Below are positions 8,167 through 55,904 of a DNA stretch of 55,904 nt, piece after piece. The translations under genes were made by a program, and so were the position numbers. The notes under the pieces were generated by a model, which saw only the letters and a program-made list of their open reading frames with translations, did no database searches and was not told where the DNA came from. Within the stretch, counting starts at the first letter, position 1, and the number at the start of each line of letters is the position of its first letter. Location of the stretch: the IMG/VR virus record IMGVR_UViG_3300045988_128069; one strand, given 5' to 3'. This DNA is from a virus.

Positions 8167-8439
8167 ATGGATATTTCTTTTCTGTCCGAATACATGATTC
8201 CCGTGATTGTTGGCATCTGCCTGTGCGTGGGCTGGATTGTCAAGCAGTGGATTAAGGATGTGGACAACCGCTATATCCCCACGATTTGCGCGGTGATTGG
8301 CGTTGCGCTAGCTTGCTGGATGAACTGGCCAGACATTACTGCGGCTGTGATCCTGTCCGGCCTTGCAAGCGGGCTGGCATCCACTGGCCTGCACCAGGCT
8401 TTCAAGCAGATTCTTGAGGGCTTTGGCGATGGGAAGTAA
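8167..8439 (+). CDS. Holin
   Basis: 90 aa, three hydrophobic segments, charged C-terminus, adjacent to the endolysin; RBS AAGGAG. Confidence 0.6.
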   Translation: MDISFLSEYMIPVIVGICLCVGWIVKQWIKDVDNRYIPTICAVIGVALACWMNWPDITAAVILSGLASGLASTGLHQAFKQILEGFGDGK

Positions 8440-8623
8440 GTTTGATTTCCAAATGAGCCGCAGCGATTATGATGACCTCTGTTTTGACCTGACCGATGAC
8501 GAACACGCCGTACTGGATTTGCGGCGGCGTGGGCTGCACAACGCCGATATTGCGGCGGAATTGTATTGCAGCGAAAGGACGGTTAATCGGAGGGTTAAAG
8601 CGATAAAAAGTAAATTAGGTTAG
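8429..8623 (+). CDS. Small LuxR/GerE- or sigma-70 region 4-type HTH protein (64 aa)
   Basis: ATG 8429 within track ORF 8363..8623; NADIAAELYCSERTVNRRVKAIKSKL HTH. Confidence 0.55.
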   Translation: MGSKFDFQMSRSDYDDLCFDLTDDEHAVLDLRRRGLHNADIAAELYCSERTVNRRVKAIKSKLG

Positions 8624-18223: not shown

Positions 18224-18571
18224 CTAATCGAGAAGTTCTTTTGGAGCGTCTTGAGAAACTAGGATTGCTCGAAGCTTTTCTTCAGGCAGAGAACGGAACC
18301 ACTTAATAAGTGCCACATCTTTTTCAGTAATCCCATCGCTTTGTGCGGTGGGCTTTTTTTCGTTTTCGGTATCCCCGCGCAAGTCGTCAACGGTGACTCC
18401 TAGCAAACTGGCAACATCGGCTAGCATATGCTCTGGCAAATCGCGCCCGTTTGCTAGCATTTCAGACAAATAGCCACGACTTTTCCCAAGCTCTGTACTA
18501 ATATGCGTAAAGGCAATTCCTTTTTTCTTTGCTATTTCCTTAGCTTTTTCTACGTATCGCACACAAAACAC
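18224..18571 (-). CDS. CI-like repressor (XRE-family HTH)
   Basis: FTHISTELGKSRGYLSEMLANG HTH; divergent from a cro-like gene across an operator-rich region. Confidence 0.75.
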   Translation of the reverse strand: MFCVRYVEKAKEIAKKKGIAFTHISTELGKSRGYLSEMLANGRDLPEHMLADVASLLGVTVDDLRGDTENEKKPTAQSDGITEKDVALIKWFRSLPEEKLRAILVSQDAPKELLD

Positions 18572-18621
18572 ACCTTTTCTTTGTACATATTGCCAATTCG
18601 CTAGAAAATGCTAGAAAACTA

Positions 18622-18650
18622 TTTACATCTAGCATAAATGCTAGTATAAT
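18622..18650 (+). promoter_or_regulatory. Early rightward promoter with a palindromic operator in the spacer
   Basis: TTTACA-17 nt-TATAAT; the spacer contains CTAGCATAAATGCTAG (18629..18644). Confidence 0.7.
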
Positions 18651-18784
18651 ATATAGCACAGAGGGCAACAAAAAACCAAGCCCCCTAAAATTCAGCGGAC
18701 TAGCTAAAAATATGCTGTTATATCTTGCAAGTTCATAGTAGCATATTTTCTAGCAATAGTCAACTAGAAAGGAGCTTTTGCTAG

Positions 18785-18979
18785 GTGAATATTTCAAAAA
18801 TTGATGCGCTGTGCCGAAAAAACAATATTTCTCGCACAATCCTTGAGGAACGCGCCGGAATCTCAAACGGCGCACTTGGCAAGTGGGAGAAATCTCCTTA
18901 CGGCCCCAGCATCACGACGCTAAAGAAAGTGGCTGACTATTTCGGCGTGCCTGTTGATTATTTGCTAGCCGATAACTAG
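18785..18979 (+). CDS. Cro-like XRE-family HTH protein
   Basis: ISRTILEERAGISNGALGKWE HTH; GTG start after GGAG. Confidence 0.7.
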   Translation: MNISKIDALCRKNNISRTILEERAGISNGALGKWEKSPYGPSITTLKKVADYFGVPVDYLLADN

Positions 18980-22408: not shown

Positions 22409-23180
22409 CAAGACTTGGATTAAGGCGTACAAGGGCTTTGACAAAGACCTGAAATGCAAAGGCAGGCAATATACGGAGGGCGTTGAAGATCATGTCTCTG
22501 ATGTGGCAAAGTTCTGCAAAGAGGGTGTGCATGCCTGCAAACGTCCGCTGGATGTTTTCAGATATTACGCTCCTGCGGATTCTGTGTACCATGAAGTTGA
22601 GCTTGCAGGCGTTTTGGACGAGCACCAAGAAGATAGCAAAATCTGCGGTACAGACATCAAAGTGAAAGGCAAACTTGATATTGCAGGGCTGATAAAAGCG
22701 CAGATTGAGTACACAAAGTCTCATTGCACCAATGAGTACAACGCCGAAAATGGAAAGCCTGCCAGTGCCGGTGATTATGGTGCCTCCAGTGCCGGTGATT
22801 GTGGTGCTTCCAGTGCCGGTGATTATGGTGCCTCCAGTGCCGGTGCTCATGGTGCCTCCAGTGCCGGTTATTATGGTGCCTCCAGTGCCGGTGCTCATGG
22901 TGCCTCCAGTGCCGGTGATTATGGTGCCTCCAGTGCCGGTGATTATGGTGCCTCCACGAGCAAGGGAAAATCTAGTGTTGGCAAAAATGGAATTGCGTGC
23001 AGCCGCTCCAAAAATGCGCGTGTAAAAGGAGATATGGGGGCTGTTCTGGTTTGCGCCAAGGAAAATGAATATAACTACGACATTAAAACATGGGCTGCTG
23101 GTGTTGTTGATGGCGTAAACATCCTGCCTGATGTCTGGTACAAGGCCGAAAATGGAAAACTGGTGCCTGCCGATGACTGA
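22398..23180 (+). CDS. Repeat protein with eight GASSAGD(Y) octapeptides
   Basis: ATG 22398 after GAGGAGGAA; central repeats flanked by globular N- and C-terminal domains. Confidence 0.65.
   Translation: MSDNKTWIKAYKGFDKDLKCKGRQYTEGVEDHVSDVAKFCKEGVHACKRPLDVFRYYAPADSVYHEVELAGVLDEHQEDSKICGTDIKVKGKLDIAGLIKAQIEYTKSHCTNEYNAENGKPASAGDYGASSAGDCGASSAGDYGASSAGAHGASSAGYYGASSAGAHGASSAGDYGASSAGDYGASTSKGKSSVGKNGIACSRSKNARVKGDMGAVLVCAKENEYNYDIKTWAAGVVDGVNILPDVWYKAENGKLVPADD
22761..22955 (+). repeat. 24-bp tandem repeat (about 8 units) inside the gene
   Basis: gcctccagtgccggtgattatggt-type units read directly. Confidence 0.85.
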
Positions 23181-25745: not shown

Positions 25746-26531
25746 ATGAGCAATGAGGGTTATATCAAAATTTATCGCCAAATACGTGATTGGAAATGGT
25801 ACTCTGACGGCCCTACAAAAGATGTTTTCTTGCATTTGCTTGTAACGGCAAGTTTTGAAGATAAATTTTATCGAGGAATCGCGGTAAAACGCGGACAGTC
25901 TGTTTTGACTGTCGAAGAAATTAGAGAAGAGACGGGCCTCACAGTACGTCAAATTAGAACTGCGATAAACAGGCTAATTTCGACAAACGAAGTGACAAAG
26001 CAAGCTACATATAAATTTACCGTGTACACGATAAATAACTATGAGCATTACCAGAGCGGCGGCAATCTTAGTGACAAACCAACGACAAACCAACGACAAA
26101 CCAACGACAAACCTTTAGATACTAAGAATGTAAAGAATGTAAAGAATACCCCCTATACCCCCCAAGGGGGTGACGCGATTTCTCCTCAATTTGACACCTT
26201 CTGGTCAGCCTATCCCAGGAAGACAGGCAAGGCAGATGCACGCAAGAAATTTGAGAAGCTTGTTACTGAAGAATCCACCTTGTCCGCAATCTTGAAAAGC
26301 CTTGAGTATCTCAAGACCACAGAGCAGTGGAAGAAAGAAAATGGCAAGTATATTCCGTATCCTGCTACCTGGCTGAACCAAAAACGTTGGGAAGACGAAA
26401 CGGCACAGCCACCTGCTGAACTCCGCAAGTCTAAAAACCTGATTCCCATCTATGACCGGGAATATACACGTGAGGAACTGATTAACGGAGTTGTTCCGAA
26501 GCTCATTGGGTGGAAGGAGGAAGGCAAATGA
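25746..26531 (+). CDS. Replication initiator / replisome organizer (winged-helix N-terminus, DnaD-like C-terminal motif)
   Basis: FWSAYPRKTGKADARKKF..YIPYPATWLNQKRWEDE; upstream of the helicase. Confidence 0.6.
   Translation: MSNEGYIKIYRQIRDWKWYSDGPTKDVFLHLLVTASFEDKFYRGIAVKRGQSVLTVEEIREETGLTVRQIRTAINRLISTNEVTKQATYKFTVYTINNYEHYQSGGNLSDKPTTNQRQTNDKPLDTKNVKNVKNTPYTPQGGDAISPQFDTFWSAYPRKTGKADARKKFEKLVTEESTLSAILKSLEYLKTTEQWKKENGKYIPYPATWLNQKRWEDETAQPPAELRKSKNLIPIYDREYTREELINGVVPKLIGWKEEGK
26073..26141. repeat. Iteron-like tandem repeats inside the initiator gene (11 bp x3.7, then 9 bp x2.7)
   Basis: GACAAACCAAC at 26073, 26084, 26095 (+ partial); AAGAATGTA at 26124, 26133 (+ partial). Confidence 0.8.
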
Positions 26532-30840: not shown

Positions 30841-31186
30841 AAAAATCAGCGAAATCTTGAAATTGCATAAAGCATGGATTAACGGAGAAAAGCACGGGAA
30901 AAGGGCCAACATGTCCGGGGTCTACCTGTTCTGGTTCTACCTGTTCTGGGTCTACCTGTCCGGGACCAACCTGTCCGGGACCGAGAATGTGCCATATACG
31001 CCTATGGCATGCCCGGATGAAGGAGAGTTTACCGGGTGGAAAAAATGAAAAAGTGATAGAATCGTAAAGCTAAAAATCCCGGAATCTGCAAGACGAAGCA
31101 GCGCATCACGGAAAAAATTCCGTTGCGGCAAAGCAGAAGTGCTTGAAATTACATCAATTGATGGAAAAGAAAAATATAAGGAGTGA
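30830..31186 (+). pseudogene. Pentapeptide-repeat protein gene interrupted by an in-frame TGA at 31046..31048
   Basis: ANMSG/VYLFW/FYLFW/VYLSG/TNLSG repeats; same frame continues after TGA as KSDRIVKLKIPESARRSSASRKKFRCGKAEVLEI. Confidence 0.5.
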
Positions 31187-34205: not shown

Positions 34206-34550
34206 ATGGTTAAGATTTGCACTGAATGTAAAAAGGAATTTGAGGGAAGCGCAAAAACCAGGCTTTGCCCGGAATGCAAGGAAAAGCATCGGAAAGCGGC
34301 TGATGCGCTCCAACGTAAAAAGCACCGCAATCAACCTTTGGTCAAATGCGAATGGTGCGGGCGGCTTTTTACCAGAAAAAAGAACGAAAAGAAGTGTGAA
34401 GCATGCCGAAAAGAAGGAAGATATGGCAGCCCACAGATGGTGGCACACAGCAAAAGGGAGCCGCCTAAAGTGAGTATTAACAACGTTCTTAAGATTGCCG
34501 ATAAAGACGGCACGACTTACGGAAAAGCGGTTCTGTCACACAACATTTAA
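34206..34550 (+). CDS. Basic double zinc-ribbon protein (candidate late regulator)
   Basis: CTECK..CPECK and CEWCG..CEACR; Lys/Arg rich; lies just upstream of the first late cassette. Confidence 0.5.
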   Translation: MVKICTECKKEFEGSAKTRLCPECKEKHRKAADALQRKKHRNQPLVKCEWCGRLFTRKKNEKKCEACRKEGRYGSPQMVAHSKREPPKVSINNVLKIADKDGTTYGKAVLSHNI

Positions 34551-34713: not shown

Positions 34714-35172
34714 ATGGGAAATAACTGCTGCAAAAGCTGCAATACTGTGCACAAACAGGTTGCTGTTGTGCTGGATGACGGCGCATACATGCCGGAATAC
34801 GCACATTTTGGCTGGGATGCAGGTGCAGACCTGAAAAGCCCTGTTGATGTGATGATTCCGGCGAACGGGAGCGCTGTAATTGATACCGGCGTACACATTG
34901 ACATTCCGCAGGGCTATGCGGGGTTCCTGAAAAGCAAATCCGGCCTGAATGTTAAGCATGATCTGACAAGCGAAGGTGTGATTGATGCAGGATATACCGG
35001 GAGCATCTGCGTAAAGCTCTTTAATCACGGAAAAACGGATTATAAAGTTCATTCCGGGGATAAAATTTCCCAAATCGTGTTTATCAAGGTAGAAACTTTC
35101 GACTTTTACCCGTGCAGCAAGATGCCGGAGCGGGAACGCGGCAACGCAGGATTTGGTAGCACCGGCAAATAA
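34714..35172 (+). CDS. dut: dUTP diphosphatase (trimeric dUTPase)
   Basis: GADLKSP, KSKSGL, GVIDAGYTG, GDKISQ, C-terminal RGNAGFGSTG motifs. Confidence 0.85.
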   Translation: MGNNCCKSCNTVHKQVAVVLDDGAYMPEYAHFGWDAGADLKSPVDVMIPANGSAVIDTGVHIDIPQGYAGFLKSKSGLNVKHDLTSEGVIDAGYTGSICVKLFNHGKTDYKVHSGDKISQIVFIKVETFDFYPCSKMPERERGNAGFGSTGK

Positions 35173-35177
35173 AAAAC

Positions 35178-35283
35178 TTGCATATTAGCGCATAATATGC
35201 TATAATATCAATAAGAAATAGCGTGCCAAGTGCTTAATTGCCAAGTGCCAGTTGAACTTGAAAGTTCGGCTGGCACTTTTGCT
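35178..35283 (+). promoter_or_regulatory. Late cassette copy 1: promoter + tandem (GT)GCCAAGTGC + terminator hairpin
   Basis: TTGCAT-17-TATAAT (35178..35206); GTGCCAAGTGC 35223..35233, GCCAAGTGC 35240..35248; 16-bp hairpin 35243..35278 then TTTTG. Confidence 0.6.
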
Positions 35284-35296
35284 ATATGGAGGGCAC

Positions 35297-36054
35297 ATGA
35301 AACTATACTGCGCAGACTGCATGGACATCTTGAAGGGGATACCAGAAGGCAGTATAGACATGATTTTATGCGACCTGCCCTATGGTACAACGCGGAACAA
35401 ATGGGATGTCATCATCCCGCTAGAGCCGCTATGGGCGCAATACATGCGCATAATCAAAAGCAATGGCGTTATAGCACTGCACAGCGATATGCCATTTACA
35501 GCGGCCCTTGTAAGCGCTGGGAAAGACTTGTACCGGTATGAGCTGATATGGGTAAAGGAAAACGGTAGCGACTTTCTGAACGCAAACCGCAAGCCCCTGA
35601 AAGCGCATGAAAGCATCCAGATATTCTATAAGCACCAGCCGACTTATAACAAGCAATATGTGGACGGAAAGCCCTATAAGAGGGGGGGGGCAAGGGAGAA
35701 AGGCTTCCCAAAAACTGGGGAAAGTTTCGTGACGACATCTTAACAGACTGTAGTGACGGCAAGCGGAACCCCACAACAATTCTGAAATTCCCAAGGGAAA
35801 AGGGATTGCACCCCACCCAAAAGCCTGTAAAGCTGGAAGAATGGCTGATTAAGACGTACACAAACCCAGGCGAGACGGTATTAGACAACTGCATGGGCAG
35901 CGGAACAACCGGAGTAGCCTGTATCAACACAAATAGAGACTTCATCGGGATAGAGAAGAACCCCGACTATTATAAAACGGCCATAAGCCGGATAAAGGAG
36001 GCACAGGACAATGGGAAGCAGGGCAACCAAAAGAAACAGCCCGATCATGATTGA
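35297..36054 (+). pseudogene. DNA methyltransferase (N6A/N4C, beta-class) split by a frameshift in a G9 tract
   Basis: DLPYG (motif IV) in 35297..35743; LHPTQKPV and CMGSGTTG (motif I) in the frame of 35806..36054; frames meet at G9 35682..35690. Confidence 0.8.
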
Positions 36055-36619
36055 TAATGACCCTGATAATGTGCCGGAAGGGAATCAAAGACGAATTGAA
36101 TTTCTGCTTGTGATATCCCAGCTTCCCAAAATAAGCACAAACGACCTGCCAGCCCTCAGAAAACGCTTTTATGACTATCTTGATCTATGTGTCAAGTATA
36201 ACATGAAAGTGGGCAACATGGCGGCGTATGCGGCTATGGGAGTGGATAGAGACACTGTAAACTGCTGGGAAAGCGGAAAAAGGCGCAGCTCGCAAAAGGA
36301 ATACCAAGAATTCGCGCGAGAAATAAAGCGTGTATGCGGGATGTACCGGGAAATGCTGATGCAGGACGGTGCAATCAACCCGGTAACAGGGCTATTCTGG
36401 CAGAAAAACTACGATGGACTGCAAGACCAGCAAGAAATCATTACCGCAACAAAAGACCCGTTAGGCGAAAACATGTCCCGCAAGGAAATAGAAGACAGAT
36501 TCAGTGCCGACTTTGTAGAGATAGACGACTTTAAGGAAGTCAAAGAGCCGGAGCAACTGATAGAACCGGTTCAAACAAAGCCATGCAGGGAAAAGAAACA
36601 AGCAAAAGAAACTGAATAA
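36011..36619 (+). CDS. terS: Terminase small subunit (gp3-type DNA-packaging protein)
   Basis: AAGGAGG RBS; LDLCVKYNMKVGNMAAYAAMGVDRDTVNCWESG..INPVTGLFWQKNYDGLQDQQE. Confidence 0.55.
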   Translation: MGSRATKRNSPIMIDNDPDNVPEGNQRRIEFLLVISQLPKISTNDLPALRKRFYDYLDLCVKYNMKVGNMAAYAAMGVDRDTVNCWESGKRRSSQKEYQEFAREIKRVCGMYREMLMQDGAINPVTGLFWQKNYDGLQDQQEIITATKDPLGENMSRKEIEDRFSADFVEIDDFKEVKEPEQLIEPVQTKPCREKKQAKETE

Positions 36620-36994
36620 ACGAAAACAGAGCATCTAGCAGCATATAAACAAACTGCCGGGTGCTCTTTTATCATGCCTATAACCACGCAAAGAAACGCG
36701 CTATTCGCTTAAATGCCATAGTAAAGCCTAAAACCAGCGCGGAAATGCCTGTTAAAGGCAGCAGTAAACCCCAAAAAAGCGGGAAAGCAGAGGGGAATAA
36801 AGCCCAAAAGAGGAAAATAAAGCAGGGGATAACGTGAACAATTTGCCGTCATCATCAAAAAAGACCCCTAAACACGAATAATTATCCCACCTTTAAAAAA
36901 CATCTCTTGAAACAAATCTCCATGTGAAATGGTCAAAAATACGGGGATTATACCAAAGTGATGCAACTAAAATACATAATATGAGAAAATCACC

Positions 36995-37544
36995 CGACTT
37001 TCAGACCAATTCGACTTTGAACCCGTTCGACTTTATCAGCCGCAAACCCCTGAACCCCGTCCGACTTTGGCTGGAATGCTCTTGATTGCAACAATACTGC
37101 ATGCGAAATAAGCAAAAACACGGGGTATATACCTGGATCATGAAACAAAAGTACATAACGCAAACCCAATTTGACTTTGCCGGAGATTTTTTCGTGCAAA
37201 ATCATTCGACTTTTCGGAAGGGGATACCCCTTCGACTTTGGGAGTGTTTCGACTTTAATTCGACTTTCAAACCCGTTCGACTTTGGCAGCGGGATGCAGA
37301 CTGGCGCACCCTGACCGCAGTGTCTTCCGGCCCGGCGGATATGATCCCCAGGACGGCTCCAGCTGGGCAAAATGTGCCTTTTGGGTACATATTTCGCTAA
37401 ATAATGATTTAGCGAACATCGAATTGACGTTGCAACGCGTATTAAATTTTGGAAGCAGCCCAAAAGCACAAAAGTGCATAAAAAAGCGCCGCCGGGGATG
37501 CCGGAAGCGCTAGAATTCATTCGACTTTCAAACCGATTCGACTT
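36995..37544 (+). repeat. Array of 12 co-oriented (T)TCGACTTT repeats in three clusters
   Basis: cgacttt at 36995, 37012, 37028, 37062, 37207, 37233, 37250, 37261, 37278, 37522, 37538; variant tgacttt at 37172. Confidence 0.85.
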
Positions 37545-37728
37545 TGCCCGCATCGCGATCCCGCCGCTCTTGGCAGGCCTGCAAGATATAGGCTTGAAGA
37601 CTCTGCCCGGCGGCTGCTGCATCCGCGCGGATCTGTGCGCCCTCCGGCTTATCTGGACGTATCATTATATTATCACGCGCCTTATTATATTTAACGCTGG
37701 CCCGCGTGTGGGCCTCTGTAACTGCCAT
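37528..37728 (-). CDS. Arc/CopG-type ribbon-helix-helix protein
   Basis: GGAGGTG RBS; NIMIRPDKPEGAQIRADAAAAGQSLQAYILQA. Confidence 0.6.
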   Translation of the reverse strand: MAVTEAHTRASVKYNKARDNIMIRPDKPEGAQIRADAAAAGQSLQAYILQACQERRDRDAGKVESV

Positions 37729-38167: not shown

Positions 38168-38273
38168 CCAGCAAGCCGGACACTTTAGCGGGGCTGCACC
38201 GTAAAGCAACCCCGCCCCACTACCCCGGCACACCGCCGGGACAATTTGAGAACTGAATACGGAGGTTTACAAC

Positions 38274-38795
38274 ATGACCGAACAAGATAAAAAAGAAATC
38301 GTCGTTGTTGATATGTCCACATGCACTATCTACGGTTTCACCGCGTCGAGCTGGTGCGGCCCCCGCGCCCCGGAAGAGGTTTTGAAAGCTGCTCAGAACA
38401 GCGCCGCCGATGATGTCCGCCGGTACGAGGAGATTTTGAACTCTGGCAAGTATGACGATCAAAAAGAGTATTGGGCAAAATGTCTTGAAGCAGCAAAGGC
38501 CCGCACTTTCTCCACCATGACCTTCGGCGATTTCCTGAACGCCCAGCGGGAGCGCCTGCTCTCCGACCCCATGCAGGAGATCACAAAACAGCAGTACGAC
38601 GATGCTTTGAACGTCCTGCCGCCGCTTGGATGGCACACCCGCCACAACGTAGAAGAGTTTTGCAGCCGTGAGTTTGAAACCGGCTCCTATACCATGCAAT
38701 ACGCGTACAGCCTTGTGCAAGGTAAGCATTACGCAAAGTTAGTTGACTACTCCGACCCCTCCACATGGATTAGTTCTATTCTTGGGCGGCAGTAA
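38274..38795 (+). CDS. Hypothetical protein (173 aa)
   Basis: Track ORF, RBS GGAGG. Confidence 0.55.
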   Translation: MTEQDKKEIVVVDMSTCTIYGFTASSWCGPRAPEEVLKAAQNSAADDVRRYEEILNSGKYDDQKEYWAKCLEAAKARTFSTMTFGDFLNAQRERLLSDPMQEITKQQYDDALNVLPPLGWHTRHNVEEFCSREFETGSYTMQYAYSLVQGKHYAKLVDYSDPSTWISSILGRQ

Positions 38796-41363: not shown

Positions 41364-41464
41364 TTGTCTGCAACGGAAAACGATGCTATAATAATAAAAA
41401 TAGTGCCAAGTGCCCTGTGCCAAGTGCCTTTTCTCAAATTTGAGGGAGGGCGCTTTTTTATTTT
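41364..41464 (+). promoter_or_regulatory. Late cassette copy 2: promoter + tandem GTGCCAAGTGC + terminator hairpin
   Basis: TTGTCT-17-TGcTATAAT (41364..41392); 11-mers 41403..41413 and 41417..41427; hairpin 41424..41453 then TTTTTTATTTT. Confidence 0.6.
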
Positions 41465-41495
41465 GAAAATTTCTGAAATTGCAAAAGAGAGCACA

Positions 41496-43073
41496 ATGCG
41501 AGCCAAGACAGCGGACGGAGCAGTTTATGCGTTTGCTGCGATCCGGGAACTGGAAAAAGAAAACTTCAAGCAGGCGCACAAGCTGAGTGTGGATTTGCAT
41601 AATAAGCTGGGTACGCTGCCGCGCTGCAATGACCTGATTGAGCTGAACCGGAATCTGCTGCTGTTCAATGCGCCGTATAACTTTGATTCCTTTTGCCAGT
41701 ACATTGAACTTGACCGTGACCCCAAAAGCCGGTTTTATATGCCGCGCCGAAAGCAGCTGATTCGGATGGTAAACACCCTGCAAAAACTGGAAGACGGGGA
41801 ACTGGACATTGCAGGAATCATGATGCCGCCCGGCACCGGGAAAAGTACCACTGCCATTTTTTATCTGACATGGCTTGCCGGACGGAACCCCGACATGCCG
41901 ATTTTAGGCGGAAGCCACAGCAACGCATTTCTGCGCGGCGTGTACGATGAATGCCTGCGAATTATGGCAAAAGGCGGGGAATATTTGTGGCGAGACGTGT
42001 TTCCCGGCGTGTGCATTGCCAGAACGAATGCGCAGGACATGATGATAGACATGTACAAGCCAAAGCGCTTTGCCACACTGGAATTTTCTTCTATCGGCAG
42101 CGGCAATGCGGGCAAGGTGCGTGCGCAAAAGCTGTTATACTGCGATGACCTTGTAAGCGGCATTGAGGAAGCCATGAGCCGGGAACGCATGGATAAGCTG
42201 TGGCAGCTGTATACAACGGATTTGCGGCAGCGCAAAATTGGTGAATGCCGGGAACTGCACATTGCCACACCCTGGAGTTTGCATGACCCGATGGACAGGC
42301 TGGAACGTAACAACGAAAACAACCCCAGGGCTGAATTTTTGCACATGCCTGCCCTGAACGAGGAAGAAAAAAGCAATTTTGATTATGCCAACGGGGTAGG
42401 GTTCAGCACCAAGTTTTATATTGACATGCGGGAATCAATGGATGATGCCAGCTGGCGTGCATTGTTTATGACAAGCCCGATTGAACGGGAAGGGCAGCTG
42501 TACCCAGAAGATCAGCTGCGCAGATACTTTGAGTTGCCGGATAAAGCGCCGGAAGCCATTATTGCAGTATGCGATACCAAAGAAAAAGGTTCTGACTATG
42601 CGGTTCTGCCCGTTGCATACAAATACGGGGATGATTTTTACATTGAGGAATGTGTTTGCGATAACGGCGCACCGGAAGTGGTGGAAACGCGGCTCTGGAT
42701 GGTTCTTGTAAAACATAAGGTTCAGCTGGCCCAGTTTGAAAGCAACAGCGCAGGCGGAAAAGTGGCAGAAAAATGCCAGCAGGAAGTAAAGGCGCACGGC
42801 GGAATAACCAGGATTGTGACCAGGTACACTACCGCAAACAAGGAAACCAAAATCATTGTAAATTCACCTTGGGTGATGGAACACTGCCTGTTCAAAGATA
42901 ATTCCGTTATCAAGAATAACAAGGAATACAGGCGTGTTTTGTCGTTTTTAACAGGGTACACAATGGCAGGGAAAAACAGACATGATGACGTGCCGGACGC
43001 ATTTGCAATGCTTGCACAATACGCTCAAGGCCTAAATGCGGGCAAAGTTGAAATTGGGACAAGAATTTGGTAA
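41496..43073 (+). CDS. terL: Terminase large subunit
   Basis: Walker A IMMPPGTGKST, C-terminal nuclease-like region; track ORF 41364..43073, first ATG at 41496. Confidence 0.8.
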   Translation: MRAKTADGAVYAFAAIRELEKENFKQAHKLSVDLHNKLGTLPRCNDLIELNRNLLLFNAPYNFDSFCQYIELDRDPKSRFYMPRRKQLIRMVNTLQKLEDGELDIAGIMMPPGTGKSTTAIFYLTWLAGRNPDMPILGGSHSNAFLRGVYDECLRIMAKGGEYLWRDVFPGVCIARTNAQDMMIDMYKPKRFATLEFSSIGSGNAGKVRAQKLLYCDDLVSGIEEAMSRERMDKLWQLYTTDLRQRKIGECRELHIATPWSLHDPMDRLERNNENNPRAEFLHMPALNEEEKSNFDYANGVGFSTKFYIDMRESMDDASWRALFMTSPIEREGQLYPEDQLRRYFELPDKAPEAIIAVCDTKEKGSDYAVLPVAYKYGDDFYIEECVCDNGAPEVVETRLWMVLVKHKVQLAQFESNSAGGKVAEKCQQEVKAHGGITRIVTRYTTANKETKIIVNSPWVMEHCLFKDNSVIKNNKEYRRVLSFLTGYTMAGKNRHDDVPDAFAMLAQYAQGLNAGKVEIGTRIW

Positions 43074-43091: not shown

Positions 43092-43119
43092 TTGAAAAAT
43101 GTGAATTTTATAGTATAAT
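43092..43119 (+). promoter_or_regulatory. Promoter of the tRNA / structured-RNA island
   Basis: TTGAAA-16 nt-TATAAT. Confidence 0.55.
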
Positions 43120-43688: not shown

Positions 43689-43789
43689 AGGCCGATGATA
43701 CGGGTAAAAGATTCAGCCCAGAGCTGAAGTTCCCTGTTAGGCAATCCCTGCACACCTCTCTTTGATGTGTCCCATGCAGGGCTTTTGAT

Positions 43790-43862
43790 GCAGTCATAGC
43801 TTAATAACGTTGGAAAAGCAGCGCCTGTGTGTGCCGTTGCAGGTTCGAGGCCTGCTGACTGC
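43790..43862 (+). tRNA. Aberrant tRNA-like element (perfect acceptor and T arm, non-canonical D, anticodon and variable regions)
   Basis: GCAGTCA/TGACTGC acceptor, GCAGG-TTCGAGG-CCTGC T arm; 13-nt D loop and no standard anticodon arm plus variable loop can be drawn. Confidence 0.4.
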
Positions 43863-44298
43863 TATTGTTGGGTCGCTCCCACCGGTGAAAGCCCGGCGCA
43901 GGAAACGCGATAGAACCTGAACGCTGTAAGCAAAGCGGCAAGCCGATCAGGAGCGCGGCGCGGCGGCAGACCGCAACGGGACTTCGAGAGCCTGAAAAAG
44001 TCTGCCCGGCATCTGCTTGTGCGGACTCTGTTACTGATGCAGTTACGCATCGCCGAAACCCATAACATCAAAGCAGAAACCGTAAACCGACAGACGGGAT
44101 ATAAAACGGGCCGGACACCGCGGAGTGACTTCCTACGCGGGATATAAATAGAGGAAATCAAAAACAGGCGTACCATCACGCGCATAGCACTGGATGCCGC
44201 CTGTTATGTTGCAAAGCCTGCTACTTTGCAACGGGTGAGCCCGGCATAGCATAAACCGGGAGGGCGGGAACGGGGTTATTTTTGAAAGAAGGGATAAA
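43863..44298 (+). ncRNA. About 430-nt ORF-free GC-rich structured region (candidate large ncRNA)
   Basis: Multiple local stems (GTTGCAAA/TTTGCAAC, CCCGG/CCGGG, CCGCG/CGCGG, GCGG-CAGA-CCGC); direct repeat CGGGATATAAA at 44095 and 44138. Confidence 0.4.
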
Positions 44299-44448
44299 TT
44301 GCGAGTAAGTGTTTACTGCCCGTGCTGCGGTGCGGCAGGAATCAAGCGGAAGCTGATGGAAGTTGATACAGCAGCAAAGGGAACGATTTATCCCTATTGC
44401 AAAGCGTGCAAGCGGAACATTGAAATCCATTTGCCGCTGAAAAAATAA
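44299..44448 (+). CDS. Cysteine-rich KTR-like zinc-ribbon protein (49 aa)
   Basis: TTG start; VYCPCCG..KRKL....YPYCKACK. Confidence 0.4.
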   Translation: MRVSVYCPCCGAAGIKRKLMEVDTAAKGTIYPYCKACKRNIEIHLPLKK

Positions 44449-44449
44449 A

Positions 44450-44515
44450 GTGCCAAGTGCCCTGTGCCAAGTGCTAGCTGAACCTTAATTGGTTTGGCTG
44501 GCACTTTTTGTTTTT
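44450..44515 (+). promoter_or_regulatory. Late cassette copy 3: tandem GTGCCAAGTGC + terminator hairpin
   Basis: 11-mers 44450..44460 and 44464..44474; 16-bp hairpin 44469..44506 then TTTGTTTTT. Confidence 0.6.
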
Positions 44516-44532: not shown

Positions 44533-45999
44533 TTGGAAAGATATCTTGTTGACATCCTGCCGGATGAGGGTTTGCACGGCAGACGGGTCATTACCACAAA
44601 CGAGCAGAAAATTACAGCGGATAACGTTGTAAAGGTGCTGAATACTGCCCTTGCCACCCACGACAGGAACCGGGGAGAAATCCAGTATTTGTGGGATGTT
44701 TACCGGGGCAAGCAGGATATCCGAAAAAAAGAAAAAATCGTCCGTGAGGAAATCAACAACAAAATCACGGTGAACATTGCAAATGAGATTGTGACGTTCA
44801 AAACAGCATTTCTACTTTCCGGCCCTGTGCAGTATATCGGTGCAAAAGGTAGCAAGACGGACAACAACAAACTGGTTAATTTGAACCGCTGGATGTCAGA
44901 TGAGGACAAACAGAGCAAGGACAAAGAAATCGTTGACTGGATGCACATTGCGGGGCTTGGCGTGCGGATGGTTCTGCCTGACCCCGGCGCGGAACAGGCG
45001 GGAAGCCCTGCCTGCATTTATACCCTTGACCCGCGTGAAGCGTTCGTCATCTACTACAGCGGCTATACCAAAAAGCCAATGGCAGGTGTGCTGACACAGT
45101 ACGATGAAAACGATGCCAAGTATTACGGTGTTTACACTGACAGCGAATATTTTGAAATCAAAAGCGGGAAAATCACCCGGAAGGCTGGGCATTTGTACGG
45201 CAGTGTGCCGATTGTGGAATACCCCAACAACAGTGCAAGAATGGGCGCGTTTGAAGTAGTGCTGCCGCTTCTGAATGGCATTAACACGCTGGAAAGCAAC
45301 CGCGTGGATAACGTGCAGGATTTTGTAAATGCGTATGACGTATTCCAGAACGTTGATTTGGAAGACGGCCAGTACAGCCAGCTTGCCAGTGGCGGTAAGT
45401 TTATCAAAATCAAAGATTCCCAGCAGGGGATGCCTGCAAAAATTTATCGCATCAGCAGTGAGATGAACAGTTCTACTGTGCAGACCGCTGTGGATGATTT
45501 GCATGATAAGATTTTGACCATCTGTGGCATGCCGAACCGCAACGGCGGTTCTTCCACCAGCGATACCGGGCAGGCAACCATTATGCGCGATGGCTGGAAA
45601 GACGCAGAAAGCCGCGCCCAGGACAGTGAAGACATGTTCCGGCGCAGTGAACGGCAGTTCTTGCGTGTGTTCCTGACCATTTGCAACACAACAAATAATC
45701 TTGGCCTGAATGTAGGGGATGTGTACGCACAGTTTACCCGCAACAACCTGACTGACATCCAGAGCAAGATGCAGGTATTTATTCAGGGCCTGGGCTGTGA
45801 AAAGATCGCGCCAGAAACGGTATACCGCGAACTTGGCCCGTTCCGTGACAATGAAATGGCCTTGCAGGAGGGCATGAAATATTACGAGGAAAAACAGGCA
45901 GAGCTTGAAAAAAGTCTGAATGAGGAGCTTGACAATGGACTGGAAACCGACGGACAGCGCAATCAGGCTGCTGAACCGCAGGGCGATACGCAGGTTTGA
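44533..45999 (+). CDS. Portal protein (SPP1 gp6 type)
   Basis: TTG 44533 after AAAGGAG; size, position and IQYLWDVYRGKQ..NNKITVNIANEIV pattern. Confidence 0.8.
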   Translation: MERYLVDILPDEGLHGRRVITTNEQKITADNVVKVLNTALATHDRNRGEIQYLWDVYRGKQDIRKKEKIVREEINNKITVNIANEIVTFKTAFLLSGPVQYIGAKGSKTDNNKLVNLNRWMSDEDKQSKDKEIVDWMHIAGLGVRMVLPDPGAEQAGSPACIYTLDPREAFVIYYSGYTKKPMAGVLTQYDENDAKYYGVYTDSEYFEIKSGKITRKAGHLYGSVPIVEYPNNSARMGAFEVVLPLLNGINTLESNRVDNVQDFVNAYDVFQNVDLEDGQYSQLASGGKFIKIKDSQQGMPAKIYRISSEMNSSTVQTAVDDLHDKILTICGMPNRNGGSSTSDTGQATIMRDGWKDAESRAQDSEDMFRRSERQFLRVFLTICNTTNNLGLNVGDVYAQFTRNNLTDIQSKMQVFIQGLGCEKIAPETVYRELGPFRDNEMALQEGMKYYEEKQAELEKSLNEELDNGLETDGQRNQAAEPQGDTQV

Positions 46000-47512: not shown

Positions 47513-48580
47513 ATGAACCTTACTGAACTTTTTACACCTGAAATCATTGCGGCAAACTATACCGAAGCTGCTTCCAATGCAATCCCGTACCTGGGCAGCG
47601 GTTTGTTCCCCTCTGTAAAGCGTGCTGGCCTTGACCTGGCATGGATTAAGGGTCACAAGGGCCTGCCTGTTTCCCTGAAACCCTCTGCTTTTGATGCAAA
47701 GGCCACTTTCCGTGACCGCATCGGCGTGAGCAAGCTGGAAACCGAGATGCCGTTTTTCCGCGAGGGCTACAAGATTAAAGAAAAAGACCGCCAGGAGATT
47801 CTGCGTGCCCAGAGCAGCAATGACCCCTATGCGGCGGATGTCATCAACCGCATTTACGATGACCAGCAGGATTTGATTGCCGGTGCTGACGTTGTGCCGG
47901 AACGCATGCGCATGCAGCTGCTGTTCCCGGAGGGCGGCGCAATGGGTATTACCATCAAGGCCAATGGCGTGAACTACACCTACAATTATGACCCTGACAG
48001 CAAGTGGAAGGGCACCAATTACACCGCCCTGACCACCACTGACATGTGGACTGCCACTTCTACCGCAGACCCGTTCAAGCAGATTCAGACCATCAAGGAC
48101 AAGATGGCAAGCAATTACGGTGTAACCCTGGCTTACATGGTGATGAACACCACCACGTTCAACCTGATGAAAGCCACCGATGCCGTAAAGAATCGCTGGC
48201 TGACCGTAACCGGCCGCAGTATGGGCTACTTGACCAACGATGAAGCCAAAGATGTGATCGCATCCACTACCGGCATTCAGATCGTGATTTACGACAAGCT
48301 GTATGCCGATGAGAGCGGCGCAAGCCACAAGTTTGTTCCGGACGGCTATGTGAGCTTTATCCCGGAGGGCGCACTTGGCAAGACCGCTTACGGCACCACC
48401 CCGGAGGAAGCCGATCTGGCAGGTTCCGGCAAGGCAGATGTTGCCATTGTGAACACCGGCGTTGCCATTACCGTTGAAACCACCGTGCATCCGGTCAACG
48501 TAAACACCTACGCTTCCGAGATCGTGCTGCCCAGCTTTGAGCGGATGGACGAAGTTGCCGTTATGAAGGTGACTGCATGA
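47513..48580 (+). CDS. Major capsid protein (E-type family)
   Basis: 355 aa; N-terminal LFTPEIIAANYTE...YLGSGLFP pattern; position. Confidence 0.8.
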   Translation: MNLTELFTPEIIAANYTEAASNAIPYLGSGLFPSVKRAGLDLAWIKGHKGLPVSLKPSAFDAKATFRDRIGVSKLETEMPFFREGYKIKEKDRQEILRAQSSNDPYAADVINRIYDDQQDLIAGADVVPERMRMQLLFPEGGAMGITIKANGVNYTYNYDPDSKWKGTNYTALTTTDMWTATSTADPFKQIQTIKDKMASNYGVTLAYMVMNTTTFNLMKATDAVKNRWLTVTGRSMGYLTNDEAKDVIASTTGIQIVIYDKLYADESGASHKFVPDGYVSFIPEGALGKTAYGTTPEEADLAGSGKADVAIVNTGVAITVETTVHPVNVNTYASEIVLPSFERMDEVAVMKVTA

Positions 48581-55346: not shown

Positions 55347-55904
55347 ATGCTGAAAAACCTGATTGTTAAAAGCGATGGGACAGAGATTGATTCTTCCCTT
55401 ATTTTGTCTTGCACATTGACGCAGACCTTGAATTCAGGCCAGGAATTCACGATTGGAAGCGCATGCACAGACGAAATAGAGGTCGAATACCTTGCGCGGG
55501 ATGACAATCTTATTGCAAAAGGCGATGTGCTTACGTTGTACTGGGTGAATGACAGCGGCACAAAAACAAAAGTCGGCATATATTATTGCGAAAAGCCAAA
55601 TTATCAGGGGCTTATGCGGGAAATATCCGGCACAAGCGCGGTTTATAAAGTAGTCGCCTACGACACCATGTCCAAGCTGGATGCGGACTTCTCCGGCTGG
55701 CTGCACGCCAATCAGGCACAGTTCCCCAAGACCATCTGGCAGCTGGTTCAGCTGGCCTGCCAGCGGGCAGGGGTTACGCTTGCCAGCAGCAGCCTGCCCA
55801 TCAACGGCAGCTACAGCGTGCAGGCGTTCTACGCGGACGACCTGACCTGCCGCCAGATCATCTCCTGGGCGGCGGAAGCGGCAGGCTGCTACGCCCACAT
55901 GAAT
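55347..55904 (+). CDS. Tail-associated (Tal-like) protein, N-terminal part; continues into 1..2730 (about 1060 aa in total)
   Basis: ATG 55347 after AAGGAGGG; open to the window end; not in the track because it runs off the end. Confidence 0.75.
   Translation, partial: MLKNLIVKSDGTEIDSSLILSCTLTQTLNSGQEFTIGSACTDEIEVEYLARDDNLIAKGDVLTLYWVNDSGTKTKVGIYYCEKPNYQGLMREISGTSAVYKVVAYDTMSKLDADFSGWLHANQAQFPKTIWQLVQLACQRAGVTLASSSLPINGSYSVQAFYADDLTCRQIISWAAEAAGCYAHMN
55800..55904. repeat. Terminal direct repeat identical to 1..105
   Basis: Exact 105-nt identity. Confidence 0.95.

Follow-up and report, generated by a model that had tools for sequence, protein, structure and literature searches.

A paired 11-mer element in front of hairpins at the late-gene blocks of uncultured gut phages, a putative RNA switch with a candidate zinc-ribbon factor

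Com of phage Mu, a 62-amino-acid (aa) zinc-finger protein of the CCCC type, binds mom mRNA beside a translation-inhibition hairpin, and its site, as defined by systematic evolution of ligands by exponential enrichment (SELEX), is a gapped direct repeat of the form GAGNNCC(N)2-3GAGNNCC (PMC6483171). Bacterial RNA-binding antiterminators, such as BglG, SacY and LicT with their ribonucleic antiterminator (RAT) sites, the ANTAR proteins EutV, AmiR and NasR, and HutP, with TRAP as a mirror image, occupy sites overlapping the 5' arm of a terminator, and their binding excludes the hairpin. In lambdoid phages, a terminator in front of the late genes is overcome by the phage factor Q, which is loaded once on promoter DNA and acts processively. 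T4-type phages carry short repeated promoter-stem-loop cassettes (PeSL) at the borders of variable gene modules, where they coincide with recombination junctions. To our knowledge, late-gene activation in the temperate phages of strictly anaerobic gut Firmicutes is essentially undescribed. Here, we analyzed the IMG/VR virus record IMGVR_UViG_3300045988_128069 (55,904 nucleotides (nt), hereafter the window), in which three late-gene blocks are each preceded by a composite element made up of two direct 11-mer repeats (units 1 and 2) that lead into a hairpin. The three elements are referred to as copies i, ii and iii. All coordinates are those of the window and lie on the + strand unless noted otherwise.

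The 11-mer GTGCCAAGTGC is found exactly at positions 35223, 41403, 41417, 44450 and 44464, in all cases on the + strand, and a sixth unit, TTGCCAAGTGC, is located at 35238. The 10-mer core TGCCAAGTGC occurs eight times in the window, compared to an expectation of 0.33 (standard deviation 0.6), and none of 100 shuffled sequences reached this count. Six of these matches constitute three same-strand pairs, each leading into a hairpin in front of the genes for a DNA methylase and a small terminase-like protein (terS), the large terminase (terL) and the portal, respectively, as reported in a preliminary description of this DNA, which had placed three + strand copies with paired 11-mers at these sites. 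The two remaining matches, both on the minus strand, appear to be due to chance, the one at 18872 falling within the Cro-like helix-turn-helix (HTH) open reading frame (ORF) at 18785-18979 and the one at 48371 being in antisense orientation within the capsid gene. The 26-mer described as common to copies ii and iii is indeed exact. The 11-mer has the structure GTGCC-AA-GTGC(C), which allows a pair to be read alternatively as four GUGCC heptads; in RNA form, the unit corresponds to GUGCCAAGUGC and the 26-nt two-unit RNA to AGUGCCAAGUGCCCUGUGCCAAGUGC.

The recognition part of copy i (35223-35248) comprises unit 1 (GTGCCAAGTGC, 35223-35233), the linker TTAA and unit 2 (TTGCCAAGTGC, 35238-35248). 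The 5' arm of the subsequent 16-bp hairpin with G.U pairs (35243-35280, including a short T-run at 35277-35280) begins in unit 2, and its fold (35243-35278) has a free energy of -29.3 kcal/mol (z -4.2 versus shuffles). The Shine-Dalgarno (SD) sequence GGAGG and the methylase ATG (35297) follow 3' of this hairpin. In copy ii, the recognition part (41403-41427) is composed of unit 1 (41403-41413), the linker CCT and unit 2 (41417-41427). Its hairpin feature (41422-41465), terminator-like in the scan, contains a G.U-rich stem of 15 bp (41422-41455) followed by T6-A-T4, with a fold of -24.2 kcal/mol (z -3.2) in the sense as against -13.6 kcal/mol (z -0.4) in the antisense strand. The 3' arm holds GGGAGGG, the only SD-like sequence for the TTG at 41463, which is located within the T-run and most likely represents the terL start; copy ii may control termination and translation alike. 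Copy iii again has the linker CCT between unit 1 (44450-44460) and unit 2 (44464-44474) of its recognition part (44450-44474). Its 16-bp hairpin (44469-44506; -28.4 kcal/mol, z -3.6 versus shuffles) is followed by T5-G-T5 (up to 44516), is terminator-like in the scan, and precedes the SD sequence AAAGGAG and the portal start TTG (44533). In each of the three copies, the foot of the stem consists of the last bases of unit 2, AGUGCC, which overlap the 5' arm of the predicted terminator; the earlier observation that the second 11-mer provides this arm was thus confirmed by folding, with z-scores of -3.2 to -4.2. The claim that an intrinsic terminator, that is a G+C-rich hairpin with an immediate U-run, is present at every copy held for the predicted terminators of copies ii and iii, which were called by the scan, whereas copy i, with four T (four U in the RNA), was not called and is borderline.

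Promoter-like sequences were found in front of two of the copies. P1 (35178-35206) consists of TTGCAT, a 17-nt spacer and the extended -10 box TGcTATAAT, with a predicted start about 10 nt before unit 1 of copy i; its -35 box matches at three of six positions only and the site was thus missing from the promoter scan, but it is kept in close relatives. P2 (41364-41392; TTGTCT, 17-nt spacer, TGcTATAAT) reached 10/12 with TG in the same scan. Of the two near-consensus promoters proposed earlier, the one at copy ii was therefore recovered, whereas at copy i only the extended -10 box conforms. Copy iii lacks a promoter directly upstream, in agreement with the preliminary description. P3 (43092-43119; TTGAAA, 16-nt spacer, TATAAT, 11/12) lies just 3' of terL and would drive tRNA-Met, tRNA-Thr, the D12-methyl RNA and a gene for a small zinc (Zn)-ribbon protein.

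The 26-mer was detected in 44 IMG/VR loci of close relatives; this motif scan had been suggested as a check, and the pair is not merely a local duplication or a chance match. Using a looser search pattern (GTGCC[A/G]AGTGC - linker - [G/T/A]TGCCAAGTGC), the 11-mer pair was retrieved from many viral contigs without DNA similarity to the window, and the genes located 3' of the element in these distant lineages encode the large terminase, the portal, the major tail protein, the tape measure or a methylase. All elements (249 of 249 in 97 loci) are co-oriented with the late genes, which supports in outline the notion of a re-used, strand-specific control cassette before late genes. In a position weight matrix of 64 distinct sites, GTGCC.AGTGC was invariant, although CC.AGTG had been fixed by the search pattern itself; the flanks were unrelated, and variation was confined to position 6 (A/G) and the initial base of unit 2. 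Even between lineages with a terL identity of only ~55-62%, the 11-mer is nearly unchanged. Three elements are present in the window and one to four per 20 kb in relatives. In the L356-358 lineage, the same three gene positions are occupied by a motif of half the size, GUGCC-N3-GUGCC, one copy of which overlaps the 3' end of the Zn-ribbon gene. Searches against Rfam 15 returned no family at the three copies, either at the gathering score or at E<=5, and a literature search for the 11-mer in both orientations gave unrelated primer matches only; consistent with the earlier statement that no described system is matched, the element appears, on the basis of these sequence comparisons, to be a widespread, undescribed cis-regulatory RNA motif of uncultured gut phages.

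In a scan of bacterial genomes, the matches listed were almost only (GTGCCAA)n microsatellites of unrelated phyla; they included one phage-type element, on a fragment of a Ruminococcus metagenome-assembled genome (MAG), and no chromosomal uses of the element. Arrays of (GTGCCAA)n or (NNGTGCC)n also make up loci L153-L272, from bacteria of soil and water that belong to many phyla (among them Longimicrobium, Acidobacteriota, Phycisphaerae and Chloroflexia), and represent a confounder for motif searches. They share the GTGCC-NN heptad with the phage element and often continue into an inverted array, (GGCACNN)n, which gives long hairpins. However, they are long, pure period-7 arrays in unrelated bacteria without a fixed relation to genes, whereas the phage element contains exactly two 11-mers, and hence only four heptads, which are broken by a variable linker and found at conserved gene positions.

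In the relatives L045 and L047, P2 is replaced by a 151-aa gene, and copy ii follows the stop codon of this gene; the promoter is therefore not part of the element. From the first base of copy ii unit 1 onward, L045 matches the window with 100% identity, with unrelated sequence upstream, and the regions upstream of copies ii and iii differ between close relatives. By this comparison, the 5' edge of the element is a recombination junction, which agrees with the earlier placement of the cassette at the downstream edge of variable insertions. The homology breakpoint exactly at the first base of unit 1 and the variable content upstream of copies ii and iii would also be accounted for if no factor were involved and the copies were constitutive partial terminators or insulators that set expression ratios and shield the late genes from island promoters, with the 5' flank acting as a homology patch for modular recombination, as in the T4-type promoter-stem-loop cassettes. 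Indeed, the hairpins are strong, and no alternative (antiterminator) pairing is built into the upstream sequence. Nevertheless, we consider this explanation quite unlikely. The 11-mers are kept across lineages while hairpins, linkers and flanks vary, a pattern opposite to that expected of a hitch-hiking cassette; unit 2 always supplies the 5' arm and remains in register with the hairpin foot even where the hairpin buries an SD sequence; and a recombination patch would need neither two units nor the complete sense-strand bias. PeSL cassettes resemble the element as short repeated cassettes at the borders of variable modules and at recombination junctions, but the conserved part is here the 11-mer pair and not a promoter or stem-loop, and it is kept across lineages without other DNA similarity.

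Folding was analyzed in 80 unique contexts (81 in the comparison of strand stability), which are not phylogenetically independent, so that the p-values given below are inflated. The AGUGC of unit 2 has a mean pairing probability of 0.92, compared to 0.60 for unit 1. About 55 of the 80 contexts contain a hairpin with a U-run, including 11 with an SD sequence in the 3' arm, whereas about 25 hairpins bury the SD sequence or end at the start codon (14 contexts left unclassed by the script were reassigned for this tally). The + strand was the more stable one in 72 of 81 contexts, with a mean of -21.6 versus -15.8 kcal/mol (Wilcoxon p 5e-13), and the sense structures contain 242 G.U pairs, or approximately three per stem. 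The linker is either 3-5 nt or 20-30 nt long. Nine different long linkers all fold as a C, a hairpin and an A-rich tail (Fisher, combined p 8e-8), whereas the recognition part of short-linker copies contains no hairpin. With a hairpin insert of this kind, two sites remain neighbours in RNA, whereas in duplex DNA they would be moved apart by two to three helical turns. Because of the constant units with variable output, the RNA-like linker, the sense-only folding and the optional promoter, the element is best viewed as an RNA element rather than a lambda-type DNA site for Q, and it probably acts as a factor-dependent switch at the RNA level.

A DNA-level role, in which the 11-mer pair would be bound by a late activator, a Q-like loader or a repressor, or would itself be a late promoter inside the 5' arm of the terminator whose transcripts would lack the arm and escape the hairpin, was weighed against the same data. 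The units of copies i and ii lie just 3' of sigma-A-like -10 boxes, in the initially transcribed region, and the reverse complement of the unit contains TTGGCA, with minus-strand promoter-like sites called by the scan at 35229-35202 and 44470-44442. In addition, tape-measure-class elements are found right after a hairpin and T-run, a terminator-then-promoter layout. On the other hand, the spacing of the unit centres ranges from 14-15 bp to 31-41 bp, with hairpin-forming long linkers, which a duplex-DNA dimer or a two-box promoter would not tolerate. Neither copy iii nor copy ii of L045 and L047 has a promoter, no -10-like box is present at a fixed downstream distance, the hairpins are selected on the sense RNA, and minus-strand transcripts would run antisense to unrelated upstream genes. 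A role at the DNA level is therefore distinctly improbable. As a separate observation, the hairpin directly preceding the tape-measure-class elements of L059, L073, L140 and L315 is a second conserved one (loop ATCTCAATATGAG) that recurs with its T-run across lineages. A sigma-54 site, suggested by the reverse complement of GTGCCA (TGGCAC), was considered and rejected, since no TTGC is found at the right spacing and the orientation is wrong. Pairing of the units with a trans-acting RNA was likewise rejected, as both minus-strand 10-mers are inside coding sequence and the D12-methyl RNA lacks GGCAC.

The preliminary description had compared the arrangement of promoter, repeats and terminator with the PR'-QBE-tR' logic of lambdoid phages. 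Similar to lambdoid late control, a terminator is located before late genes and is proposed to be overcome by a phage factor, and in copies i and ii a promoter is directly followed by the recognition element. The analogy did not hold beyond this: the promoter is dispensable, outputs elsewhere bury the SD sequence, and the linker, with lengths between 3 and 30 nt, can itself contain a hairpin. In contrast to the single loading and processive action of Q, each hairpin carries its own overlapping site. The N/nut system differs as well, since nut is composed of boxA and a boxB hairpin and is not fused to a terminator, whereas two single-stranded 11-mers are found here. No antiterminator family, including Q, was identified among the ~30 proteins scanned between 30 and 46 kb.

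The proteins of the window were compared with those of divergent element-bearing loci, and a 49-aa ORF (44299-44448), whose stop codon lies 1 nt before copy iii, was the sole non-structural one present everywhere, with no other within ~10 kb on each side. It encodes a basic four-cysteine Zn-ribbon protein (MRVSVYCPCCGAAGIKRKLMEVDTAAKGTIYPYCKACKRNIEIHLPLKK) that we consider as the candidate trans factor. The family, which is basic and characterized by four invariant Cys residues and an invariant PYCKxCKxN motif, was found in at least 209 viral loci, where no annotation goes beyond "cysteine-rich" or "hypothetical"; Ruminococcus, Anaeromassilibacillus and Eubacterium are the sources named. Each of the 97 full 20-kb loci surrounding a Zn-ribbon gene contains at least one element, and in 75 of them an element is located directly 3' of the Zn gene. 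Further peaks of element positions relative to this gene are found ~3 kb upstream (terL) and ~7 kb (major tail) and ~9.5 kb (tape measure) downstream. Conversely, 110 of the 128 loci found by the DNA pattern lie on contigs that encode the Zn-ribbon protein, the remainder being microsatellites or short fragments. A search for more divergent Zn-ribbon subfamilies with a changed motif recovered only six proteins, and the altered form available for comparison was the reduced GUGCC-N3-GUGCC of the L356 lineage. The AlphaFold model of the protein is confident (predicted local distance difference test (pLDDT) score 93.7), and a Foldseek search with this model against the PDB gave nothing significant.

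Two other proteins had been named as candidate factors. The basic double Zn-ribbon protein (34206-34550, 114 aa) was found only in the window's own lineage, in a scan reaching close relatives only, while the 11-mers occur in far more distant phages. The second protein (8429-8623) is truly of the GerE/LuxR type, but no link to the element was apparent. Neither assignment was retained.

Several points speak against the 49-aa protein, and against the switch more generally. Its Pfam matches were all sub-threshold (Cys_rich_KTR, Ogr_Delta), and homology to Com was not detectable, with an hhalign probability of 23% and an out-of-register alignment to the Com sequence used. The co-occurrence of gene and element is confounded by the common descent of the whole terL-Zn-portal module, just as the contexts used for folding are related to each other. 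P3 looks strong and constitutive, which fits poorly with a Zn-ribbon activator kept off in the lysogen. Moreover, the U-tract of copy i is weak, the hairpin and T-run before the tape-measure-class elements would also suit a promoter within the repeats, and the phage collection searched contains no cultured representative of this group. In view of the co-occurrence data, the Zn-ribbon protein is a tentative choice for the trans factor, and we hold its assignment to be possible but doubtful.

The same RNA switch could alternatively be operated by another binder, either an Oscillospirales host protein or a phage protein encoded outside the compared regions, which might act against the hairpin or determine mRNA stability as an RNase or processing factor. 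The near-invariance of the 11-mer over lineages with strongly diverged terL would fit a host partner that evolves slowly, the link to the Zn protein is one of co-occurrence only, and this protein shows no recognizable RNA-binding family. Yet, no second non-structural gene is common to all element-bearing lineages within ~10 kb on each side, and the bacterial genome matches listed contained a single phage-type match (on the Ruminococcus MAG fragment) and no chromosomal use. A different binder thus appears unlikely.

Taken together, the best explanation, for which we see belief and doubt about evenly balanced, is that each copy acts in cis as a switch within the sense RNA, with the Zn-ribbon protein as the best candidate factor. 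The conserved part would be formed by two single-stranded GUGCCAAGUGC units, joined by a linker of 3-5 nt or, in other lineages, by a small hairpin, followed by a strong hairpin whose 5' arm has the last six bases of unit 2 (AGUGCC) as its foot. The hairpins of the window would be intrinsic terminators, and that of copy ii would also hold the ribosome-binding site. By default, the hairpin would form, and transcripts from the early operon and from P1-P3 would stop, or stay untranslated, before the methylase/terS genes, terL and the block from portal to tail. A protein that binds single-stranded RNA in a sequence-specific manner would dock on unit 1 and then take unit 2 before the 3' arm is made, so that the bound units would block the hairpin and permit read-through by RNA polymerase or access of the ribosome. 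The Zn-ribbon protein itself would be translated from the transcript that starts at P3 and ends at copy iii. Since such a factor would act locally and not processively, one copy would be required per gated gene block, which would account for the triplication. The motif and its conservation, the strand bias, the overlap with the hairpin, the folding of the sense RNA, the variable outputs and the co-occurrence with the Zn gene are observed here. We infer from them that transcripts terminate, that the units are bound by a factor, that the Zn-ribbon protein is this factor and that expression is turned on by binding.

In its most specific form, this proposal would make the 45-60-aa Zn-ribbon family of gut Oscillospirales phages a group of sequence-specific single-strand RNA binders that recognize GUGCCAAGUGC pairs, melt terminator or SD-sequestering hairpins at three to four sites and thereby license packaging, head and tail genes, as an independently evolved, non-processive system reminiscent of Com/mom. 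We put this version forward with reserve. Shared with Mu are a tiny, basic four-cysteine zinc protein (here 49 aa) encoded immediately upstream of a regulated gene (in the 75 of 97 loci mentioned above), an RNA target next to or overlapping an inhibitory hairpin that hides start signals (here predicted from the architecture), paired units comparable to the gapped direct-repeat site of Com (PMC6483171), and the control of a DNA-modification enzyme, which is one of the genes gated here. In contrast, the Zn-ribbon protein has no sequence or profile similarity to Com, and no Com family was found among the Pfam matches of 43 Zn-ribbon members. The target consists of two single-stranded 11-mers instead of a hairpin loop, with the Zn-ribbon protein being only a candidate binder; most outputs are terminators and not only translational hairpins; and three to four sites per genome gate packaging, head and tail genes instead of one accessory gene.

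Like the sites of the BglG/SacY/LicT, ANTAR and HutP proteins, the element overlaps the 5' arm of the terminator, such that binding would exclude the hairpin. Its bipartite, repeated site, as if made for an oligomeric protein, is a further resemblance to bacterial RNA-binding antiterminators, and, as for TRAP, the same recognition part serves transcriptional and translational outputs. Unlike in these systems, the recognition part contains no RAT- or ANTAR-type hairpin, and the element is phage-borne and serves late morphogenesis genes. Searches for CAT/PRD, ANTAR, HutP and TRAP domains among the same ~30 phage proteins (between 30 and 46 kb) gave no hit. Membership of this system in the Com, LicT, ANTAR or HutP families is not supported. 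Literature searches on D12-methyl and on zinc-ribbon antitermination yielded nothing useful.

In hundreds of genomes of uncultured gut phages, the element provides a compact and easily searched marker for the control of late genes. It also offers a concrete RNA-protein pair, consisting of a 26-nt RNA and a 49-aa candidate protein, both of which can be synthesized and which, if confirmed, would constitute a minimal orthogonal switch for antitermination and translation. The coupling of one recognition module to either a transcriptional or a translational output is a hallmark of riboswitch-like cis-regulators, here found in phage morphogenesis operons. If the proposed mechanism is true, a distributed, non-processive late switch would license the whole packaging, head and tail programme.

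The window represents a complete, circularly permuted phage genome of ~55.8 kb with an exact terminal repeat of 105 bp (1-105 = 55800-55904). Annotated relatives were no closer than 41% in terL, and none carried the Zn gene. The early operon runs rightward from a CI-like/Cro-like switch (18.2-19.0 kb) up to the dUTPase gene (34714-35172). It is followed by copy i with the split DNA methylase gene and the terS-like gene, by copy ii with terL, and by copy iii with the SPP1-type portal gene and the structural genes. The genes gated by copy i (35297-36619) were assigned by Pfam and PHROG matches and comprise the N6/N4 DNA methylase ORFs (35297-35743 and 35806-36054) and the terS-like gene (36011-36619). 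The methylase, split in the window into ORFs of 148 aa and 82 aa (35297-36054), is encoded by one undivided ORF (~257 aa) in some relatives, such as L006. The terL gene downstream of copy ii (41463-43073; 536 aa) matches phrog_38 with an E-value of 3.5e-56, and the SPP1-type portal gene (44533-45999; PF05133, E 2e-70) is the first structural gene gated by copy iii.

The interval between terL and the portal gene contains, in this order, the promoter-like sequence at 43092, tRNA-Met, tRNA-Thr, the D12-methyl RNA (RF02950), the 49-aa ORF and copy iii. The D12-methyl RNA (44207-44272; 82.7 bits) is located ~25 nt 5' of the Zn-ribbon ORF and not before the methylase gene, which lies 9 kb away behind copy i. 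It was not found upstream of the Zn genes in the 10 loci of other lineages that were scanned, and a coupling of this RNA to the Zn gene was therefore rejected. The region between tRNA-Thr and the D12-methyl RNA (43700-44200) is G+C-rich with few ORFs and is shorter in the relatives L045 and L047; it gave only a weak match to a group II intron domain (43879-43981, E 0.09) and sub-threshold tRNA-like matches. In the variable island between terS and terL, a RAGATH-5 RNA (RF02685, 69.8 bits) is present at 38176-38226, just 5' of the ORF at 38274-38795.

Further repeats were noted elsewhere in the window. The switch region (18224-18979) contains a CI-like HTH gene on the minus strand and a Cro-like HTH gene on the + strand, with repeated, operator-like GCTAGAAAA/TTCTAGC sequences in the intergenic spacer. 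Nine tandem 24-nt units (CCAGTGCCGGTGATTATGGTGCCT) at 22714-23001 are part of a long ORF, probably for a repeat-containing surface or tail protein, and contain GTGCC by coincidence. Three exact 11-nt tandem repeats (GACAAACCAAC) at 26073-26113, beside the region of a DnaB-type helicase, and four 15-nt repeats at 30909-30983 may be iterons or coding repeats. Finally, four repeats of ~36 nt with TTCGACTTT pairs are located at 36989-37551 in the terS-terL island, around the minus-strand ORF at 36990-37622.

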